A DNA stretch of 63,490 bases, filler included, from Hausera hauseri (lineage: Eukaryota), in the NCBI GenBank assembly GCA_046269625.1. It is 11 parts of 11 records of this genome, joined end to end, with 100 filler letters (N's around TTAATTAATTAA, not from the genome) between each part and the next. Parts side by side here need not be neighbours in the genome. Positions count along the whole stretch, not along the records: positions 45,460 to 53,301 come from JBJURY010901425.1; 10 more parts are not named here. One strand, written 5' to 3'. The notes beneath the pieces were generated by a model that worked only from the letters and a program-made list of their open reading frames with translations, did no database searches and had not been told where the DNA came from. Shown here in pieces: positions 1,255 through 63,409 of the stretch. Position 1 is the stretch's first letter. Every line of letters begins with the position of its first letter. A program made the position numbers and the translations under genes.

Positions 1255-3243
1255 TTGAGAGCAAATATTGATAATCTCAAATTGAATCAAAAATCATTAG
1301 TAAACGGTCAACAGGAACCAAATCAAAGAGAGACAAGGAATAGACTTTATACGGAAGATAAGATAATAGATAAGCACTTTCTTTCCGATACCGAATTAAA
1401 CTCTGTTAAGGAATTTAAATTTCCTCATAGAACTAAGATAGACAAAACGAATAAAATTAAAATAACAACAGATAATCCAGTGATAACTCAGAAACTTAAT
1501 ATATTTACGTTCGACTCGTTAAATTTACCCGCATAAGACGGAGACCCGGTTGGGCTAAATAATTTTTTAAGGAATTACAAATTTCATGCAGAAGGTGCAG
1601 GTCTTGCAACCGAAATCATGATAATACGATTATCATTATATCTAAAAAACTTGGCTGCAGATGCCTATAGTGAATTAAATAATGAAGAGAAGAAATCATG
1701 GTCCTATGTAGTAGGAGCTTTGAATCGTATATTATTGCCGACAGTTACGCCACAACAGAAGCTGATGGCTTTTCAGAATAGAACGCAACGAAAAGACGAA
1801 TCGGTTACTCAATTCGCATTCGCGCTTAAGAAACTTGCCAATAGCTACGTAAGCACGTTAATAATAGCTAATGCTGCAAAGGCAAAGACAGAGACAGAAC
1901 GAGAAGCGGCAGAAAAAGCTAGTCCACCAGATTTAGATGTCATGATGACAACGCAGCTAATAAACGGCATATGGTCCAGAGATTTAGTGAAGCAACTGAT
2001 TTTGGCTCGACCAGACAGTTTCAAAACTGCATTGCAGCTAGCTCAAAATTTAGAAATGGCCTTAGATAAGTATGCCAGACAGAATGAGAGGTATGACCGA
2101 AATAATGATTGTGACAATCGTGAGAGAAAAGGGAACAATAGAAGATTTAACGAAAATAATAAGGACCGAGGCTATGAAAATAGAACTCAAAACGCCTCCA
2201 GTCGCAATATGAAATATGATAATAGGAATTTCAATGATAATCGGTATACATATAATCCTTATATCAAAACAGGTTATAATCCAGAAAGAAATTAGAATAA
2301 TGACTGAACTAATAAAAACCGATATATAGATAATCGGAGTTTTGAAAATAGAAATGGCGGATTCGATAAACAAGCTCAAGGCAAAACAATGGATAGACAA
2401 AAATCACCAGTAAATGAAGACGGAAGACAAAGGATCGGTCGAGACGGAAATCTAATTTGTTATTCATGTGGTAAGGAAGGACATATAGCTAGATCATGCC
2501 CTAATCCACGGAGTGTATCATTTGCAGAGACTAGTAAAGCTAGCACAATAAAAGATAATTTGGAAGGAATCTACGGAAAACGAGGTGACATAAGCATGAT
2601 TATTGAGATGCAGGACTTACGAAGGTATGTAAGAAATATGGGCGAATCTAATAATCCACAAGTAATCAAGGCTAGGAAGGAATACGAAGAAAAGTTGCAT
2701 CAAATGGAAGTTTATCATGGATTAAGAGAACCAACAACAGAATACAAAAAGGCTATAGCGCCTAAGAATACTAATATGGCCAGAAAGAAAAACCTAAATC
2801 CAGTTGCAAAGCCAACTACGCCTCCAAATATAGATTTGGATGCAGATACCGAGGTTGCGCCTAAAGATAAGAACAAAGTAACATTTGATCTTGAAGTTGC
2901 ACCTCAAGATAAAAACAAAGCAACAGATGAGGTTGAAAGCGAATTTATTGGCCCACTGCTACTTAAGATAACGAAAAATAGAGGTAGAAGCCCCTCTCTT
3001 AGGAGAAGGTCAAGAACTCGCTCGAGATCACCTATCAAGAAGGATATAGAAAAAGAGGAAGATTTCACTATCACTCTAAGAGATGAAACGGAGTTAAACA
3101 CTCCTGTGAGACTACAAGACGTTCCGGAAGTAACCAACAATCTGAACATTGATGAAATAAATGAGATACGTCCGTTACCATCCACTGAGGAGGAATCAAA
3201 AGAGAAAGAGTCTATTAAATGTGTGAAGATTAGAAAATCTTAG
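1255..3243 (+). pseudogene. gag: Ty3/Gypsy gag (capsid + CCHC zinc knuckle), broken by in-frame stops
   Basis: ORFs 1255-1536, 1618-2295 and 2389-3243 share one frame. Capsid motif RTQRKDESVTQFAFALKKLA; knuckle CYSCGKEGHIARSC. Confidence 0.88.
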
Positions 3244-45459: not shown

Positions 45460-45603
45460 TTTACTGAACCTTGGCGAGATGATATTAATCCATCAGGTTA
45501 TACAGTACCCAGAGATGAAACAGAAAATCATTTTAAAGAAATGATGCATCGAAATAGACAAAATATACATAAAAATCAGCAAAATTCACAAACAATTTGT
45601 TAG
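45460..45603 (+). CDS. 3' end of an unknown ORF converging on viral unit A
   Basis: Open from the contig start: FTEPWRDDINPSGYTVPRDETENHFKEMMHRNRQ...TIC*. Confidence 0.35.
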   Translation, partial: FTEPWRDDINPSGYTVPRDETENHFKEMMHRNRQNIHKNQQNSQTIC

Positions 45604-46059
45604 TGTTAGAAATCATATACGCTAAAAATTTATTTTTATTTATATAAAAAATAAAATTTATTCTCGGGAAAAACAAGAGTCTCTGATAGCCCAGATCATA
45701 CTTTATAACAAATGCAGAAATTTCAGTTCGCACTCTGGGCACGGTGTGAGGGGTGAATATGGGAACGTACACGAATCCGTAAATTTAAAAATAAAAAGTC
45801 AAAAAATCTGTAACCATATTAGCACACAACAAAGAACAAAGAAACAAAGACAAATTTTAACACACAATATTATGATGATTTAGAAATACAACGAATATTA
45901 CAGAATTTGCGTGAAAATGTGTTATTTAAATAAATGTTTAGTTCAACTTTTTATCTTTTCCCTCTATTTATAACTTAATAAAAAATATAAAAACCAAATA
46001 AAAACGAAACAAAGAAATAATAAACAAAGACATTTTTATACATACTAAAATTTATTTTA

Positions 46060-46754
46060 CTACACATAGCTTTCCATAGGTTCTGTATCTGCATCGCTAA
46101 TCCCACAGCTATCGGCATCACTGCTGTCCTCTGCAAGTTTCAAGATAGGCTTGTAACCGTTAGGTGGGTCAGGCTCTGGCACCCGCTCCTCACCTAACGT
46201 ATACTCAACAGCGTTCAGGGCTACTCTCGGGAGTGGAGAGCCGGCTGGACGCTGAACTATTCTCGGATCGAGACACTTACCTAAAAATAATAAAATACAA
46301 AATAAAATAATTAAATACCCTGTTGCCGTTTACCTTTTAGAGCAAAACAAATCAAACAATCGTTTCCCCAATCATAGATCGGAAACGGATTGTGTGAACA
46401 CAAAATCTCTTGTCTGTGCAAATTGTCACAGATATCTTCAGCACTACGTCGAGGTGCGGAATACACATCACGCACAGGGTCACCATCGTCGTCGCTGGCA
46501 AATACTCGGAGAAGACTGCAGAGATGGATCGGATCCTTTATCGAATATACAGTTTGCATTTTCTCATACAGATGAAGAATTTGTTGCATCATGTGCAGGT
46601 TATGTATGCATAAACGGTTGACATGCTGGAGATCGGCTGTCTCCTCTGGTGGGATATTATAGCGGATTTCAACGTTACGAACAAGGTCGCACAAGCTGTC
46701 GATACTATACTGCAATTTAAGCAACTTCGAAAGGAATTCACCGTGTTCACCCAT
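46060..46754 (-). CDS. Viral accessory gene ORF2, copy A: two exons (46754-46319, 46280-46060), 38-nt GT-AG intron; Cys/His-rich
   Basis: Spliced product ...LCSHNPFPIYDWGNDCLICFALKGKRQQG|KCLDPRIVQRPAGSP...TEPMESYV* is colinear with copy B. Confidence 0.75.
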
Positions 46755-46847
46755 TAATAATAAAATAAGACTAGAACAACGAAATATTTATTCACTGTAC
46801 AATCTATTTTTAGCAACACAAATGAGCACCAATCAGATAAAAATTAA

Positions 46848-48370
46848 TCACAAAGTAATGTGGTCATCACGACCCCACGTGTCCTCAATATCGTCAAACG
46901 TAACATTAGCTGGTGCACTGTTGTACTCAGTAGGAACATTTCCAGTATTCAAATAATTAATTTGACTATCTCTACTAATCAACCCCGCCCGCCAAGCATC
47001 TCTTTCTGCAAACGGTATATGGCAGATTTCGCTACACATATGATATGGGCTTAAAATTTCACGATGATAAAGTGGTCTGTAATTTCTAATGTTATCATAA
47101 TTGATAGGAGTATTAAGATCATCATCGTCGTAACTAGGAGAATGAAACAATTCGTCCTGGGAATTTATAGATAAAGATTGATGAGGCGGGATAACTACAG
47201 GAATACCAGTTGGCAAACTACTAATAGGTAATGTGTCACTACTTTCCATAGGAATAACTTGAGGAGTGCTCTGCATCAATGGAGTACCAACGACTTCTAC
47301 TTGTGGTCGCACATATTCACTTGCAAGTTTTCTAAAATCAATTCTATTATCAATCAAAAACCTATCCCTACTTTCATCCGTTTGATACAACATGAAATCG
47401 CCGAACTCATAAAGTAAACAGCGTTTCATGCAGGCCTCTTTCTGACTTAAATCCATCCTTCGAGGCCAGAAGGAGGATTGCGAGTTGTATGTAAAGATTA
47501 CGGGGATACTCGAGGGAACGACAACACTTTTATAGAGTCCCCTAATACTTCGATTGTCATGTATATTATTGCACTGTACAATGCTTAAAAATATGTCAGG
47601 GCAAACTTCCGAAAAACCCACATCATCGAAAATTATTATGTCGTAGTTTGGAGACCACTCTGATGGGGTATCATGCAGGCTATGTAAAATCAACGGGTTC
47701 TTCCCGTGACTTAGGGCGAAACAAGTTTTCCCTATATTGCTCGAACCGAATAATAGGGCTGTATTAACTCCGTTCTCCAAGCGAAACTTAATGGGTGGAA
47801 TAGTAAATATGTATTGCGGATTTGTTTCTATCTTAGGCTTGAACTTATTTGCACAGTATGTCTGCAGTAATTTGTGCCGTGTAACAAACTCCGCACGGTC
47901 TCCCTCTTTCATTATGTTCATTGCTTCCGAGACCGTGGGAGCATCATCAAATAGCCTATACAAGGCTTTCCTACTGTTATTATCTTTGTGCAAATCTATG
48001 GGTGGAGTCCCTAGCTGCATCACGAATGCGTTGTTATTCTTCTCGTGATACTTGTAGACCGCAAAAACGTTACTGCGGAACGGGATGACGTAGAGAAAAT
48101 CAAACAATGTTTTGAACCTGTGTAACCTCATGGGGTTACGCATATAAAACAGATAATGAAGGTGGTGGAAGCCACTTGGTGATGTGTCTTCGACCACCTT
48201 GAGATAAAATTTTACAGACAACGAAATACGAATAAAATTAATCAATCATTACAAGATCATCACCATCGTTAATTTTTGTCACGGCCATAAAATGCCGAAA
48301 TGTCGCGCCTTCTGGTGGCTATACCAACTCCGAAATCTTATCGGGAAATCTCTGTTGTAAAGCATCAGTG
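46848..48370 (-). pseudogene. rep: CRESS-DNA-virus-type Rep (HUH endonuclease + SF3 helicase), copy A, 5'-truncated
   Basis: RCR motif II EDTSPSGFHHLHYL, motif III YKYHEK, Walker A GSSNIGKT, Walker B IIFDD, motif C FTYN. Stop and frameshift at 48240-48325; similarity to copy B ends at 48370. Confidence 0.9.
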
Positions 48371-49623
48371 ACAATGTAACGATTACAATACCAATTAACA
48401 TGACATTCAGTATTCAATTCCAAAATGATTTATACAAATGGAATGAATTAAAAACTCCATATTTCCAACCATACATATGGACAAGAGAAATAAATGATTT
48501 AATGACATATTATGAGTTTTGGAGGCCTAAACATATGAAAGTGAAATTTATGAATGCACAACCAACATATCAAACAGGCACAGTGGACTTTAAAGGAATA
48601 AATCCAGAATGCAGATTACAATTTTTCGTGGACTATAAAAATGTATTTTACAATTACGAAAACAGACCTAATACAGAAATAACAGGTCAAACAGCATTAC
48701 TTGCTTATTGGAATGAAGGATTATTAAAAAATGATAATTATTTATTAGGTTGGAGTACAAGTACAACAAATATTACAACACCAGCGTGGTGCCCAACACG
48801 TACATTACCAATATTAACAGATAATAGAGGAAATCAACCAACAGTTAGGAAATATTATGAACATTTACCATTTCAAAGTGGTGTAACAGAAATTATTGCT
48901 AATGAACCAGACTTATTTACATACGAATACACACCAACTCATGATTATTGGAAACAAACACATTTAAGTGCAATGTTATGGAATTACGTTAAAACTAATA
49001 ATGGAAAAGTCGATAATTCACAATTTGGAACATTAACAGATGATAAAATTCCTTGGATTGCAGACAGATTCGACTACTTACATACAGAAATAATCCAACC
49101 GAATTGGAATACATGTAGTAATTGGTTCAACATAGCTAAGGATGAAATTGTTAGTAAATGCCATTATGATATTAGATTAGATGATAAAACGTACAAAAAT
49201 TGGAAATTAAATTATCATTATGAAACTAGTAGTTTAGGAAAAACTTACGAATATTGGTGGAGGGATACTGATTATATACAAGAAGAAAAACCTATGCCGG
49301 GATTATACTTTAAAATTAGTCCACTTGCAGGAATAGATAACAATGCATGTGCACAAACATGTCAAATGAATGTAACAATAGATTATACATTTGAATTTAC
49401 AAGAAATCAAATAAATGAAATGAGAAGACAAGCTTATATAATGAGTGCGAAAGACACGCAAATACCACTTAAAAGGAAATACTATAAAGCTTGGTTTCCT
49501 GTGTGCCAACCAGTTACAACATTTATCTCTAAAAAGAATAATGAAGGTCACATTACAAGTATAAAAGAAGTATGGGATAAAAAGGACATGCTCAGTAACA
49601 TGTTCAGTTATTACAACGTGTAA
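48371..49623 (+). CDS. Parvovirus-type capsid protein (VP), 5'-truncated, otherwise open (407-aa ORF from 48400)
   Basis: TPYFQPYIWTREINDLMTYYEFWRPKHMKVKFMN...RLQFFVD and KPMPGLYFKISP...QMNVTIDYTFE parallel the parvoviral VP jelly-roll segments (..FRPK.....N..Q.F.D; PPP.I.IK; V.I.WE). Confidence 0.75.
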
Positions 49624-49625
49624 AA

Positions 49626-50243
49626 ATGAATTACAAACTTTTTGAAGACGAAGCGAGAAAAAATGTACATTTCATTATCTCCACTTGTGTTTATGACTTA
49701 CCTGACGATTGTCCAATTGATATGTTACACAATAAATCCAATCTTCCAAAACTTATCAAAAGCATTATTTCAAGCAACGGTGGCAAAGTTAATACAATAC
49801 AATTACTTGGTCCCAGAAATTGCGGCAAATCATTCTTCATCAATTTACTAACAGCTAATAAAAATGTTGGTGCCATTCATAACATGTTTTCGCGCAGTAA
49901 TTTTTGGTGTCAAGATTTAATTGGGAAAGATATTTATGTTGGAGAAGAAATAATGCTTGATCAATTTAATGCTTAATATTTTCTAATGTTAATGGAAGGC
50001 AGTCAATTGACTCGTGCAGAAAATAAATTTCAACATAGTTCGAAGTTACCGAAGAAACCTATGATTATTGCAAGTAACGAGTGTCCGTTTCGTCATGTTA
50101 GTAGTATGTATGATGCGTTCATTGTCCGAAGATTATTGATTACTTTTATAAAACCAATTCAATTCAGTATGCCTATCAATTATGATGATATAGAAGTGCA
50201 GAGGATTTTACAGAGTTTGCGGGATAATGTTTTATTTAAATAA
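49626..50243 (+). pseudogene. Stand-alone parvovirus NS1-type SF3 helicase/ATPase (~205 codons, one premature stop at 49974-49976)
   Basis: KVNTIQLLGPRNCGKS (Walker A), NFWCQD, YVGEE (Walker B), LMEG...ENK, PMIIASN (motif C), AFIVRR. Own ATG 2 nt after the VP stop; no HUH domain; its stop overlaps AATAAA. Confidence 0.85.
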
Positions 50244-50553
50244 ATTTTTTTACTACTTTGCTATGTTTTGGTTTTTTTTTTTTCGTTTTTGGGTGTCCGG
50301 AGCAGTGAAACTATGGGGCAGTGTAGTTAGTGGGGTTATTCTTTTAAAGAATCATTCTAATTCAAACCTAGCTAGTGTGAACGAGCTTACGCAGTGGTCT
50401 GGGCACGGAGTGAGGGTGTAGATGGGCACGTACTCGAATCCGCAACTTTGGTTACAAAAATTCATAAAAAATCTGTTACCATGGAAACGTAAACAAAGAC
50501 ATACGAAACAAAGAACAAAAAACACAAAGACAATTTTAAGTTTGAAATTTTTA

Positions 50554-51214
50554 TTAGACAAAGGAAACCATAGGCTCAGTGTCATCAGTCTCGTTTTCAG
50601 CTTCTTCATCAATTACATCAGAAACCACATACGATCGCGTGGAACACACAGGCCCAGCAACCACCTCATAGCGGTCAACATCAAGGGCTATCCGGGGGCG
50701 TGGAGAGCCGACTGGACGCTGTACTATTTGGGGGTCCAACCACTTTCCTAAAAATAATAAAATAAAAATCGAAAAATAAAATACCTTGTTCCCTCTTACC
50801 TCTCAAGGCAAAACAAATTAAACAGTCATTCCCCCAATCGTAAATAGGAAAGGGGTTATGACTACATAAAATTTCTTGGCGATAGAGACTGTCGCAGATA
50901 TCTTCCGCCACTCGAGGATTACACGAATACACGTCACAAACACCACCATCAGATTCGTCAGCAACACGTAATAGAGAACATAAATGCAAAGGATCCTCAA
51001 TTTGAAATTTTCCTTGCATTTTTTCATATAAAACGAGAATATCGTGCATGAGATTCAAATTATGCAAACACAAACGCGATATGTGTTGCATATCTGTGAT
51101 CTCTTCAGGAGGAAGGTTATACCGTATCTCGACATTCCTCACATGATCACACAAACTGTCAATCGAATATTGTAATTTCAACAATTTGGATAAAAATTCA
51201 GAATTTATAGACAT
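50554..51214 (-). CDS. Viral accessory gene ORF2, copy B: two exons (51214-50785, 50747-50554), 37-nt GT-AG intron
   Basis: ...DCLICFALRGKREQG|KWLDPQIVQRPVGSP...TEPMVSFV*. Intron position is the same as in copy A. Confidence 0.75.
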
Positions 51215-51310
51215 AATGAAATACTAAGTCAAAACAACAAAACTCAGAACTATTTATTACAACTGTACACACATAAAAATAAACACACATAATGAGCATC
51301 CAATAGCAAT

Positions 51311-52933
51311 TTACATAGTATGATGATCATCTTGTCCCCAATCAAAATCTATGTCCGTATAACGCACATATGCAGGTGCAGTATCAACTTCAATTGGAGT
51401 TGCGTCTGTATTGAGATAGTCCACTGGTGCAGGATCAATATAGCACCTTTCCGAGCACACATGAAAAGGTGACAGTACTTGGTTGTGAAAAGTTGGACGA
51501 TAATTTACTACATTAGCTAAAACAGGTGGGCTAACATCATCGAACGACGGTAAATGGAAAAGCTCGTCATCTCGGTAATCCCCACCAACATTAACACTTA
51601 ACGACTGATTATTTGGGATAACTACAGGAATACCACTAGGTAAACTATCTACAACAGGAATAGGAACAGAAATTACAGGGGGCACAACATACTGATCTGC
51701 AAGTCTACGAAAATCTACCTTATTCTCCGTTAAAAATCTATCACGACTCTCGCCCGTCCTGTACAGCATGAAATCTCCGAACTCATGTAAGAGGCAACGT
51801 TTCAGACACGCCTCCTTCTGGGATAAGTCCATCCTTCGAGGCCAAAAGGATGACTGCGAGTTGTACGTAAATATAACTGGGACAGACGACGGGACAACTA
51901 CGGATTTGTACAGGCCTCTTATTGATCGGTTTTCATGAACATGATTGCATTGGACTATTGCAAGAAATATATCGGGACAAACGTCGCTAAACCCTACGTC
52001 GTCGAATATAATTAAATCATATGAGGACGACCACTCTGCAGGTGTGTCGTGTAAACTGTGTAATATTAAAGGGTTCTTGCCGTAGGAGAGAGCATAGCAG
52101 GTTTTGCCTATGTTGCTGCTCCCGAACAACAAGGCAGTATTAACACCCTGATCTAACCTAAAATTAATAGGTGGTATTGTGAAAATATAATTAGTATTAA
52201 CAATTATATTTGGCTTAAATTTTTATGCGCAATAGCTTTGTAATAACTTATGCCGAGTCACGAACTCCGCTCGGTCTCCTTCTTTCATAATATTCATGGC
52301 CTCCGAGACCGAGGGAGCGTCGTCAAATAATCTGTATAGGGCTTTTCTACTATTGTTATCCCTATTAATGTCTATGGGGGGATTACCGAGCTGCATACAA
52401 AACGTTGAAGAATTTACATTTTTATCATGATATTTATATACTGCATAAATATCGCTACGAAAAGGTATAACGTACAAAAAATTGAACAAAGTCTTAAAAC
52501 AATGCAACCGCATCGGATTTCGCATGTAAAATAAAAAGTGAAGGTGGTGGAAACCAGATGGAGAAGTATCCTCCACCACCTTCAGATAAAACTTATAAAG
52601 CAACGACAAGCGAATATAATTACTCATAAGCATGGAAATGTCAATATTATCGTCATATTTCAGGACGGCCATATAATGCCGGAATGTTGCACCTTCTGGT
52701 GGCTGTATTAATTCTTCAATCTTATCCGGAAATCTGGTCTGCAAAGCATGCGTGTAATCATCATTTGAAGGAAACAGGCGAGTATAAACACCATTTCTGG
52801 CATTATGCACTGTGAAATTTTCTCGATACCCCTTTGGAAAAAAAATATTAATATTATTAATAATAAAATAAAAAAATACTTGTTGGTTGCGTTCTTCACG
52901 GCTCATTATCTGACTCTGGGACGATGACGACAT
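51311..52933 (-). pseudogene. rep: CRESS-type Rep, copy B, full length; 1-nt frameshift at ~52225; putative 48-nt intron 52832-52879
   Basis: HHLHFL, YKYHDK, GSSNIGKT, IIFDD, FTYN. Restoring one base joins ORFs 52223-52933 and 51311-52132 colinearly with copy A. Confidence 0.9.
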
Positions 52934-53084
52934 GTAGCAGAAATATGAGACAGTGTATAAATTATTACGAATTTATACAATATCTCATATATTGCATAAC
53001 ACATCATAATACACTGATAAATTATGACGAATGAATAATTGTCCTTTGTATTTAAATATATTTGAAAATCATTCTACTCCTTTT

Positions 53085-53151
53085 TGAGAATGAGCAACCA
53101 ATAATATTAGCTACTATATATAGCTTAATTATTATTGGTTGCTCATTCTCA
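53085..53151. promoter_or_regulatory. Perfect 22-bp inverted repeat (hairpin) upstream of Rep, with a CCAAT in each arm and a central TATATA
   Basis: TGAGAATGAGCAACCAATAATA (53085-53106) pairs with 53130-53151. Inner AGCTA/TAGCT stem. A second hairpin lies at ~53205-53243. Confidence 0.8.
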
Positions 53152-53401
53152 TTTACACATATTCTTTTCTTATGTTTCTAAAAAAAGTATATAGTAGTGC
53201 AGATATTATTTACTATCTACTTACAATAGTAAGTAGTAAATAATTAATAAAAAATTATTATTTACATCGGGTGCATTTTTGATACGGTGAAACAAAGCTA
53301 TNNNNNNNNNNNNNNNNNNNNNNNNNNNNNNNNNNNNNNNNNNNNTTAATTAATTAANNNNNNNNNNNNNNNNNNNNNNNNNNNNNNNNNNNNNNNNNNN
53401 N

Positions 53402-61785: not shown

Positions 61786-61890
61786 TTGACCAGTCTAATA
61801 ACCAACATAACAAGAACAGGAGAACGAAAAAGATTAATAGACACGCCGATTTTGACTCAATCAAACACTTCTAGACCAGGTATAACCGGT

Positions 61891-62664
61891 ATGTCAATAA
61901 TGGAGATCCTACAAATCCTCTTAATAACGTCATTAATAATGCCAAAAGCCGTAGGTACAGTCGCATACCACTGCTCCAAGCCTAGCGAAGGACAGAAGTA
62001 CTCTTTAGTTGATTTTGAGAAATGTCCAAAAGCCGACCCAAAACAGTTAACAACAACAAGTGGCCTCGCATATTGGGTTTATCAGGAATCTGAATTTATA
62101 AAGGTGAAAGTTAGGGAATGTTACGTCAAGAGATCATTTTTCCTGTTTCATTGTGCCTATTATTCTGGAAATTTGGCCATCATCGAGCCCACAACACCTT
62201 TTGAACCAATAATAATATCCCGAGCGGAATGTCAGGATGTCTTTAAGATTGGTACAGTAACTATTCACGATGCACCCATACTTGCCGTTAGAAATAGAAT
62301 AAAGTACACCAGAATCTTCAGAGCAGGAAGAATAGATAAAACAATGGAAGGCACATGTAAATGAGTGGATTACGACGTTGGAGGTACCATCGCATCTAGA
62401 ACGGTAGCAATTGAGGATTTCCAGGTTCAATTGAAAGAATACGAAGTACTATTTGACTCACAAACGAAATTAATGACAACATTGTTGAAGGAAGGAAAGT
62501 TCAACAAGACAGTAAGTAAAACGGCTGAGAAGGACACAGCTACGTATAAAGAAGGAACAAAGGAAGTTAAGATGACGGAAGTAGCTACTATTGTGTATTC
62601 AGAAAACCTAGAGGAAATGATGCGATTTAAAATCACTGGAGTGGTAAGTAAATGTACAGTATGA
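61891..62664 (+). pseudogene. env: Env-like glycoprotein (class III, gB/chuvirus-type), N-terminal part with internal deletions
   Basis: Signal-like MEILQILLITSLIMPKAVG, then AYHC...YSLVDFEKC...VYQ...VRECYV...FHCAY...ISRAEC...G.CK. Confidence 0.7.
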
Positions 62665-62905
62665 CTGATGATAACAATATCAAATATGATCAGGTAAAAG
62701 TAAAATCAAAGCACAATCAAATAACTAGCATTAAGCAACTGGCACTGAAGTCACGAAAAGAAAAGTACAGGCAAAAGTTGGTGACGAACTTACATCATCT
62801 AGATCCCGTAGATGAATATCATGGACAAATATATAACGAACGACCATTGGTGAATCCCTCAGTCCTCGATACGTAGTACATACGGGACTGTACCCTATAC
62901 ATCAA

Positions 62906-63409
62906 GTGCAACAGATGAAACAAAGTTTTGACGAAAATCTGACACCTTATAAATGTGAACCTACATATAAAACGGATGATAAAATCGAACGGCAATCACC
63001 CATAAGACCAGAGATAGAGATAGAGGTGAATGGATATCCATTGATGGTTCCGTTAGATACTGGATCCACGACAACAATAATGGGAAGGAGCCAAATGACA
63101 AAAAATTTAAAAAGGAAGCTAAGAAGACCGACAACTACGTTAATAAATGTAGGAGCATTCGGTACAGAAGAGGAAATTAAAATGGTCATAAATGCCGAGA
63201 TTAAGATTGGTAAACAAATTTTAAAGCACATAATAAGAATAGCAGACAACCTGACTAATGAAATCCTAATTGGGTGCGATATATTAAGTCAATTGGAAAA
63301 CACTTACATAGATGTGAGAACAGGTCAACTTAAGACTTTCATTGAAGATCAAAATGGAGGGATGGTTTCATTAACAAAAGATATCATATCCCACCACGAT
63401 CCAAGATAG
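62906..63409 (+). pseudogene. Retropepsin (aspartic protease), start of pol
   Basis: IEVNGYPLMVPLDTGS...ILIGCDIL. Confidence 0.92.

Follow-up and report, generated by a model that had tools for sequence, protein, structure and literature searches.

What does a helicase do when its gene directly follows a capsid-like gene, in an element that also encodes a Rep with a helicase domain of its own? This arrangement occurs in the window, the whole 63,490-nt stretch of Hausera hauseri DNA analyzed here, which consists of eleven contigs with N-TTAATTAATTAA-N spacers between them; genes on either side of a spacer are therefore not neighbors. The finding lies within one contig, at 45460-53301. There, the open reading frame (ORF) at 49626..50243 (+) is likely the stand-alone helicase of a broken, integrated-looking, PEVE-type single-stranded DNA (ssDNA) virus, PEVE being a virus-like element known from planarians.

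A helicase gene without a nuclease domain

The ORF runs for 205 codons from an ATG at 49626 to a final stop at 50241-50243, and it is interrupted in frame by a TAA at 49974-49976 (residue 117). Upstream, the frame is shut by a stop at 49596, 10 codons before the ATG. The encoded protein carries the full set of SF3 catalytic motifs expected of a motor of the AAV Rep40 type. The Walker A motif GPRNCGKS begins at residue 62, with its lysine at residue 68; the GEE of Walker B occupies residues 106-108; an IASN motif supplies the sensor asparagine, N151; and the arginine finger is provided by RR at 168-169. No HUH (H-hydrophobic-H) motif occurs anywhere in the ORF. A first-pass annotation of this DNA had described parvovirus-style motifs, the lack of an HUH domain, and an ATG of the gene's own about 55 residues before Walker A. 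Motifs, lack of HUH, and ATG all stand, and the distance is corrected to 61 residues. The internal stop is not a general feature of the gene, since 20 contigs of run X1 and two of run X2 differ from the window within that codon.

With the internal stop read through as X, the protein matched the Pfam families PPV_E1_C (3.2e-6), DUF5906 (6e-6), and Parvo_NS1 (4.6e-4). Among structures, it matched the parvoviral NS1 structure 9kbj (9e-5) and, weakly, AAV Rep40 (E 0.09), and the likeness to NS1 and Rep structures stops at sensor 1. A single-sequence model reached a pLDDT of 30 and is not usable for fold comparison. A HMMER search against 1.84 billion proteins was more informative, returning 245 hits, 41 of them at E<=1e-10. 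The best was the PEVE helicase NP_476522.1 (227 aa; 49% identity over 139 residues, E 1e-30). Calling the protein an NS1, as the first-pass annotation did, thus overstates its closeness to parvoviruses.

The same annotation had held that full-length NS1 proteins among the closest homologues would count against a nuclease-less gene. Instead, the closest homologues are proteins of 211-244 residues that begin with Met. An HUH-like motif before Walker A was found in none of the 39 hits at E<=1e-10 in which Walker A was located, not even in the 13 that have more than 200 residues before Walker A; among the matches listed (150 of 245), 25 of the 143 with a located Walker A carried one. These counts come with the caveats that the pattern may miss degenerate motifs and that some short hits are possibly fragments. 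Pfam found no nuclease domain in any of the 12 hits scanned. Within the top ten, Walker A was located in nine, six of which have their starting Met no more than 130 residues away from it. A rough tree of 46 rows (the query plus 45 of the top 51 hits, six too-short rows being left out) groups the query with PEVE in a set of eight rows, each 205-285 residues long, with support of 92/93 and an unsettled bootstrap. By pairwise alignment, the distance from sensor 1 to the arginine finger is 17 residues in the window helicase and in 35 of the 51 top hits. Judged by sequence, then, the helicase is not a truncated NS1, and its gene is very probably nuclease-less by nature. More broadly, nuclease-less parvovirus-like helicases form a broad clade. 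The top 51 hits (P0001-P0051) are a broad HUH-less, parvovirus-like set, which includes a cluster member bearing the name "rep 40 protein helicase" of Chemarfal virus 267.

Other searches returned less. A profile of four near relatives retrieved PEVE and three papillomavirus E1 loci. No matches came from word-based protein searches with the helicase, VP, and Rep, from locus searches of viral and metagenome contigs with the window proteins, or from a locus search with a profile of six longer HUH-less hits. In an alignment from the supplement of PMC5013282, the helicase row of transcript GAKN01010353 agrees with the window helicase, by eye, at 33 of 65 ungapped positions.

Gene order, decay, and tandem copies

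The helicase belongs to a unit (unit B) in which a capsid-like gene (VP) and the helicase lie on the plus strand, followed by ORF4 and a CRESS-type Rep on the minus strand and then by three hairpins. VP, a putative single jelly-roll capsid-like gene at 48361..49623 (+), has 420 codons and an ATG at 48400. Its frame opens at a likely deletion junction, and so its natural 5′ end has probably been lost and ATG 48400 is perhaps internal. The VP-helicase junction (49621..49629, +) comprises the VP stop, 2 nt, and the helicase ATG; a TGA overlapping that ATG is also in the VP frame. An AATAAA at 50239..50244 (+) overlaps the helicase stop, and none directly follows that of VP; a common 3′ end for the two genes is therefore likely.

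The upstream ORF is likely a capsid protein, as judged from one feature search plus a weak similarity to PEVE. In the Atlas feature search it resembled ssDNA capsid clusters (Denso_VP4, VP1_2) at 0.96, with 225 of 256 features in common. All nine matches listed are either capsid-type clusters of small DNA viruses or viral clusters that include capsid families, TT_ORF1 and Smaco among them. Its length of about 420 residues also fits a capsid. These observations bear on a different account, in which the element would be a plasmid- or transposon-like replicon without a capsid and with nothing to package. Consistent with that account, Pfam and PDB sequence searches with VP gave no match, the Atlas recognition value of 1828 falls under the tool's 2300 mark, and PIVE, a virus-like element integrated in Schmidtea mediterranea, has an entry in Repbase (PMC3198968). 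Set against the capsid matches and the size of VP, we consider a capsid-less replicon quite improbable. A single-sequence fold of VP, made without an alignment, had a pLDDT of 30 and is unusable.

The Rep of unit B (51311..52933, −) contains motifs I-III, Walker A/B, and motif C, together with an in-frame stop at 52223-52225 and a possible 48-nt intron at 52832-52879. About three bases upstream of its start region, a stem-loop (52936..52996, +; z −6.9) presents the nonanucleotide AATTATTAC (52960-52968) at its apex and is likely the rolling-circle origin. Two features that mark Cressdnaviricota are therefore present, an HUH-SF3 Rep with motifs I-III and Walker A/B/C and a nonanucleotide stem-loop. 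A third mark of that group is a circular ssDNA genome in virions; the copies seen here all look integrated and are broken. Two more intergenic hairpins lie at 53085..53249 (z −12.9 and −5.0). By comparison with the terminal hairpins of Parvoviridae, the hairpins of this element stand on one side only, and one of them carries the CRESS nonamer. The NS1 of Parvoviridae is an HUH nuclease fused to an SF3 helicase; the window helicase is not, and by this test the element is not in Parvoviridae.

ORF4 (50554..51214, −) encodes an unknown, Cys/His-rich protein and has a 37-nt AT-rich intron candidate at 50748-50784; it matched neither Pfam nor PEVE (z −1 to 0). Between the converging genes lies a conserved noncoding block at 50398..50519, 77% like 45734-45854 and with no stable fold, which is a candidate second-strand origin. 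An Rfam search gave no match, and no long inverted repeats occur within contig 45460-53301, although the ends of the element are deleted or beyond the contig. The contig has no polymerase-sized ORF, and Pfam found no PolB among the seven ORFs scanned, which rules out a polinton or bidnavirus. A host gene was also rejected.

A second, independent unit (unit A) duplicates ORF4 and Rep at ∼72% DNA identity to unit B. Of its helicase gene a remnant is left at 45869..45939 (+), the last 20 codons with 16 of 20 residues identical, its own stop, and an AATAAA. As in unit B, the helicase end faces ORF4 (46060..46787, −; 38-nt intron candidate at 46281-46318). The two ORF4 copies are 73% identical, with saturated synonymous sites and with their short intron candidates at the same place. 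The Rep of unit A (46848..48365, −) lacks its 5′ end and motif I, has a stop near 48320, and breaks frame near 48240. Both minus-strand Rep ORFs are CRESS-type (Atlas 0.97), and both retain Walker A/B and motif C. Between the two Reps, pS is 0.87-0.93 and pN is 0.13-0.19, a pattern that places the Rep SF3 domain, as read from the sequences, under strong purifying selection. Overall, synonymous sites between the units are saturated and the proteins are 75-83% identical. Thus, the units represent two distinct viruses that were under purifying selection before breakage, and a recent tandem duplication followed by neutral decay is ruled out.

At least two units, both diverged and broken, thus lie in tandem on this contig. 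The lesions include the stops in the helicase, in Rep B, and in Rep A, the Rep A frame break, and the loss of the Rep A 5′ end. Taking 45460-53301 as a whole, two or three diverged viral units (∼72% DNA identity) stand head to tail with deletions, an arrangement that might have arisen if elements inserted repeatedly at copies already present. Similarity between units A and B stops at 48365, the point at which VP begins, and three X1 contigs have a loose end there. The likely deletion is thus the junction of Rep A with VP B (48358..48372), not that of VP with the helicase. A flank at 45460..45720 with very high summed contig depth is likely a host repeat. In all, 1155 contigs of run X1 mapped to the stretch, 425 of them less than 90% alike. 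Exact-match X1 pieces occur across the contig, ruling out an assembly artefact; X1 is possibly the source of the window and so is not independent support.

The first-pass annotation had also stressed that VP precedes the helicase. Indeed, the VP stop lies 2 nt before the ATG, and the order is native, as PEVE has the same one. In favor of a natural start at the ATG, three X1 and two X2 diverged contigs start matching at 49626 or 49628 after 54-75 nonmatching letters. On the other side, most related contigs diverge from the window just 5′ of the helicase ATG; among the matches listed (of 93), none of 12 pieces spans the junction by 31 letters, and summed contig depth falls at 49612-49625. This depth drop, the further deletions in the array (48365, 45869), and the three broken genes are what might be expected if the ORF were a functionless remnant of a full-length NS1 that a deletion had truncated at or near the ATG. 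However, the closest relatives are short and HUH-less, and the PEVE order is identical. In addition, two of the three rows with a loose end at the ATG contain, by eye, a 9-base word that also occurs at the VP end, placed nine bases further from the ATG. The stump reading is already largely refuted, and we give it very little credence. Related contigs also have loose ends at 49680-49740, marking a variable segment in which the helicase here is ∼20 residues shorter than that of PEVE.

Base composition differs along the element, with a GC content of 30-32% in VP and helicase (48400-50243) versus 37-42% in Rep and ORF4 (46848-48239). This contrast is consistent with two modules of different history.

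PEVE and other known systems

The element is almost certainly PEVE-type. We compared it with both PEVE segments, L001 (1911 nt) and L002 (5699 nt). On L001, the helicase is preceded on its own strand, at a distance of 286 nt, by a plus-strand ORF of 169 codons (230-739) that matches VP 312-356 (38%, z 7.8 from 500 shuffles). On L002, a minus-strand ORF at 207-1040, which runs into the inverted repeat, matches VP 27-95 (26%, z 4.9), and the PEVE Rep matches the window Rep (25%, z 15). Gene order and gene content are therefore common to PEVE and the window element. Like its window counterpart, the PEVE helicase is stand-alone and HUH-less, and in PEVE, too, the DNA is AT-rich and a separate CRESS-type Rep converges on the helicase end. 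PDB sequence searches with the window VP, the window Rep, and the VP-like ORF of PEVE gave nothing useful.

The two elements also differ. PEVE consists of two segments bounded by 243-bp inverted repeats between two capsid-like ORFs, whereas VP in the window is one ORF. The VP-helicase gap is 286 nt in PEVE and 2 nt in the window, so tight coupling of these genes is not conserved. The strong hairpin of the window precedes Rep; in PEVE the same nonamer lies behind Rep (L002 5073-5081, −), on the other strand from it, and its surroundings fold weakly (z −1.2). The window copy is broken and lies in a tandem array, whereas PEVE is reported as non-integrated (PMC3198968). The PEVE inverted repeat is 75% AT and is abutted by both capsid-like ORFs. 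The sequence comparison suggests that these ORFs are two parts of a single capsid gene split by the repeat, and that the repeat may serve as an intron; a PEVE capsid gene in two ORFs flanking an inverted repeat would make this long-unclassified element a virus. Upstream of the L002 capsid-like ORF lies a 626-codon basic, proline-rich ORF (1290-3170, −), and its counterpart may be what was lost at 48365 in the window.

PEVE and PIVE each encode one CRESS-like and one NS1-like protein (PMC3198968). In PIVE, which is integrated and was compared by description only, one protein groups with the PEVE Rep and the other with the PEVE helicase near parvoviral NS1 (PMC3198968). The Parvo3071 group of parvovirus-like contigs carries an auxiliary CressRep beside a parvovirus-class NS1 (bioRxiv 10.1101/2024.03.25.586562). 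It perhaps has the same architecture; the portion of its text covered is silent on loss of the NS1 nuclease, gene order, and packaging, and its supplementary maps may show the layout. The architecture reported here is thus another instance of the PEVE/PIVE type. Since the two-helicase layout is already in the PEVE record, Liu 2011, and Buck 2024, the novelty implied by the first-pass annotation was too high. In the texts covered, which include few subscription papers and so are weak evidence of novelty, we found none that names a capsid for PEVE or assigns its helicase to packaging, and the parts of PMC10269781 and PMC6186406 covered hold nothing bearing on the question.

It is useful to set the helicase beside two systems in which a helicase without a nuclease accompanies a parvoviral capsid. 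AAV Rep40 and Rep52 are likewise helicase-only SF3 proteins, which serve a parvoviral capsid (PMC12713660); Rep40, however, is an isoform of the rep gene, whereas the window helicase has its own gene. The Walker A lysine is residue 68 in the window helicase, 88 in PEVE, and 116 in Rep40 (K340, with Rep40 being 225-536; PMC12713660). Thus, the window helicase has ∼48 fewer residues before Walker A than Rep40 and lacks an N-terminal oligomerization domain of Rep40 length, most of which is without a counterpart here; basic residues of that domain are proposed to push DNA (PMC12713660). Sensor 1 and the arginine finger, 17 residues apart in the window helicase, are 23 apart in AAV, where the span holds the capsid-docking hairpin 427-434. 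In Bidnaviridae (BmBDV VD1 ORF2), the nuclease has been lost and the parvoviral capsid and a stand-alone S3H have been retained (PMC4061559). These viruses differ from the window element in having a protein-primed PolB and linear segments and no CRESS Rep or nonanucleotide hairpin.

Possible roles of the helicase

The first-pass annotation assigned the start of replication to a CRESS Rep, and the Rep motifs and hairpin nonanucleotide bear this out, with nicking itself predicted from sequence. CRESS Reps nick a nonanucleotide hairpin and unwind DNA with their own SF3 domain. Because both Reps keep Walker A/B and motif C, a second helicase would be redundant for unwinding. Given a complete Rep, an ATPase that stays in the capsid unit, and bidnaviruses that retain a capsid and a stand-alone helicase under another replicase, packaging is our lead reading, and we place the chance that it is the main job of the helicase somewhat below even. 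Under this scheme, a separate CRESS Rep would nick the hairpin and drive rolling-circle replication, VP and helicase would be made from one late transcript by coupled stop-restart, and rings of the ATPase would dock on the five-fold vertex and translocate ssDNA as parvoviral Rep/NS1 does, acting as a motor that pushes the genome into preformed capsids. In AAV, efficient packaging requires the small Reps, and Rep uses a hairpin that follows sensor 1 to dock on the five-fold pore (PMC12713660).

Several observations count against packaging, namely the shorter region before Walker A, the 17-residue segment where AAV has 23, and the looser VP-helicase coupling in PEVE. In addition, a closed circular genome would offer no free end to thread. 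Packaging would then need to be tied to strand displacement, as it is in phiX174.

The helicase could instead be an accessory replication enzyme, one that aids Rep in unwinding or melts hairpins and inverted repeats, with its place beside VP reflecting an inherited gene order. This role would fit the three strong intergenic hairpins here and the 243-bp inverted repeats of PEVE, and papillomavirus E1, the nearest Pfam match, is a replication helicase. Compared with AAV (PMC12713660), the protein also has a shortened docking segment and is without most of the N-terminal domain of Rep40. Yet the SF3 domain of Rep is itself complete and strongly constrained by purifying selection, and the helicase gene sits in the capsid unit and faces away from Rep. 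Moreover, densoviral NS1 rows also have a short segment after sensor 1 (∼14 residues, by eye, in a hand-edited alignment in PMC5013282), so that a short segment does not by itself exclude packaging. On balance, an accessory role is possible but rather unlikely.

A further alternative would make the ORF the last exon of a longer spliced protein, with a first exon upstream of VP supplying an oligomerization or DNA-binding domain. The element seems to use short introns, there is an in-frame AG at 49605-49607, this copy has lost the DNA upstream of VP, and in one X2 contig the match begins only at 49628. Against this stand PEVE and the other nearest relatives, which are called as proteins of 211-244 residues with a Met start, the absence of an HUH motif from the part of the contig's plus strand that lies upstream, and the absence by Pfam of a second nuclease on the large PEVE segment. 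A spliced protein is thus improbable.

Returning to packaging, we tentatively propose that PEVE-type elements constitute an unrecognized family of capsid-forming ssDNA viruses in which the two jobs of NS1 have been split. A captured CRESS Rep would take over genome replication, and the dedicated packaging motor would be a minimal AAA+ ring with a gene of its own, without a nuclease and with most of the Rep40 collar gone; the HUH-less clade, with dozens of clusters, would mark many more such viruses. If the packaging reading is true, these elements provide a natural experiment on why helicase-only Reps are needed to fill capsids, a question open in PMC12713660, and the helicase would be the smallest candidate ssDNA packaging motor.

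Elsewhere in the window, the other contigs hold gypsy reverse transcriptase, integrase, and protease pieces and a eukaryotic kinase. These neighbors point most probably to an animal genome and, with the intron candidates of 37-38 nt, are compatible with a flatworm host such as the planarians of PEVE and PIVE. At 61786-63409, a Monjiviricetes-type fusion glycoprotein fragment lies beside a gypsy-type protease ORF.
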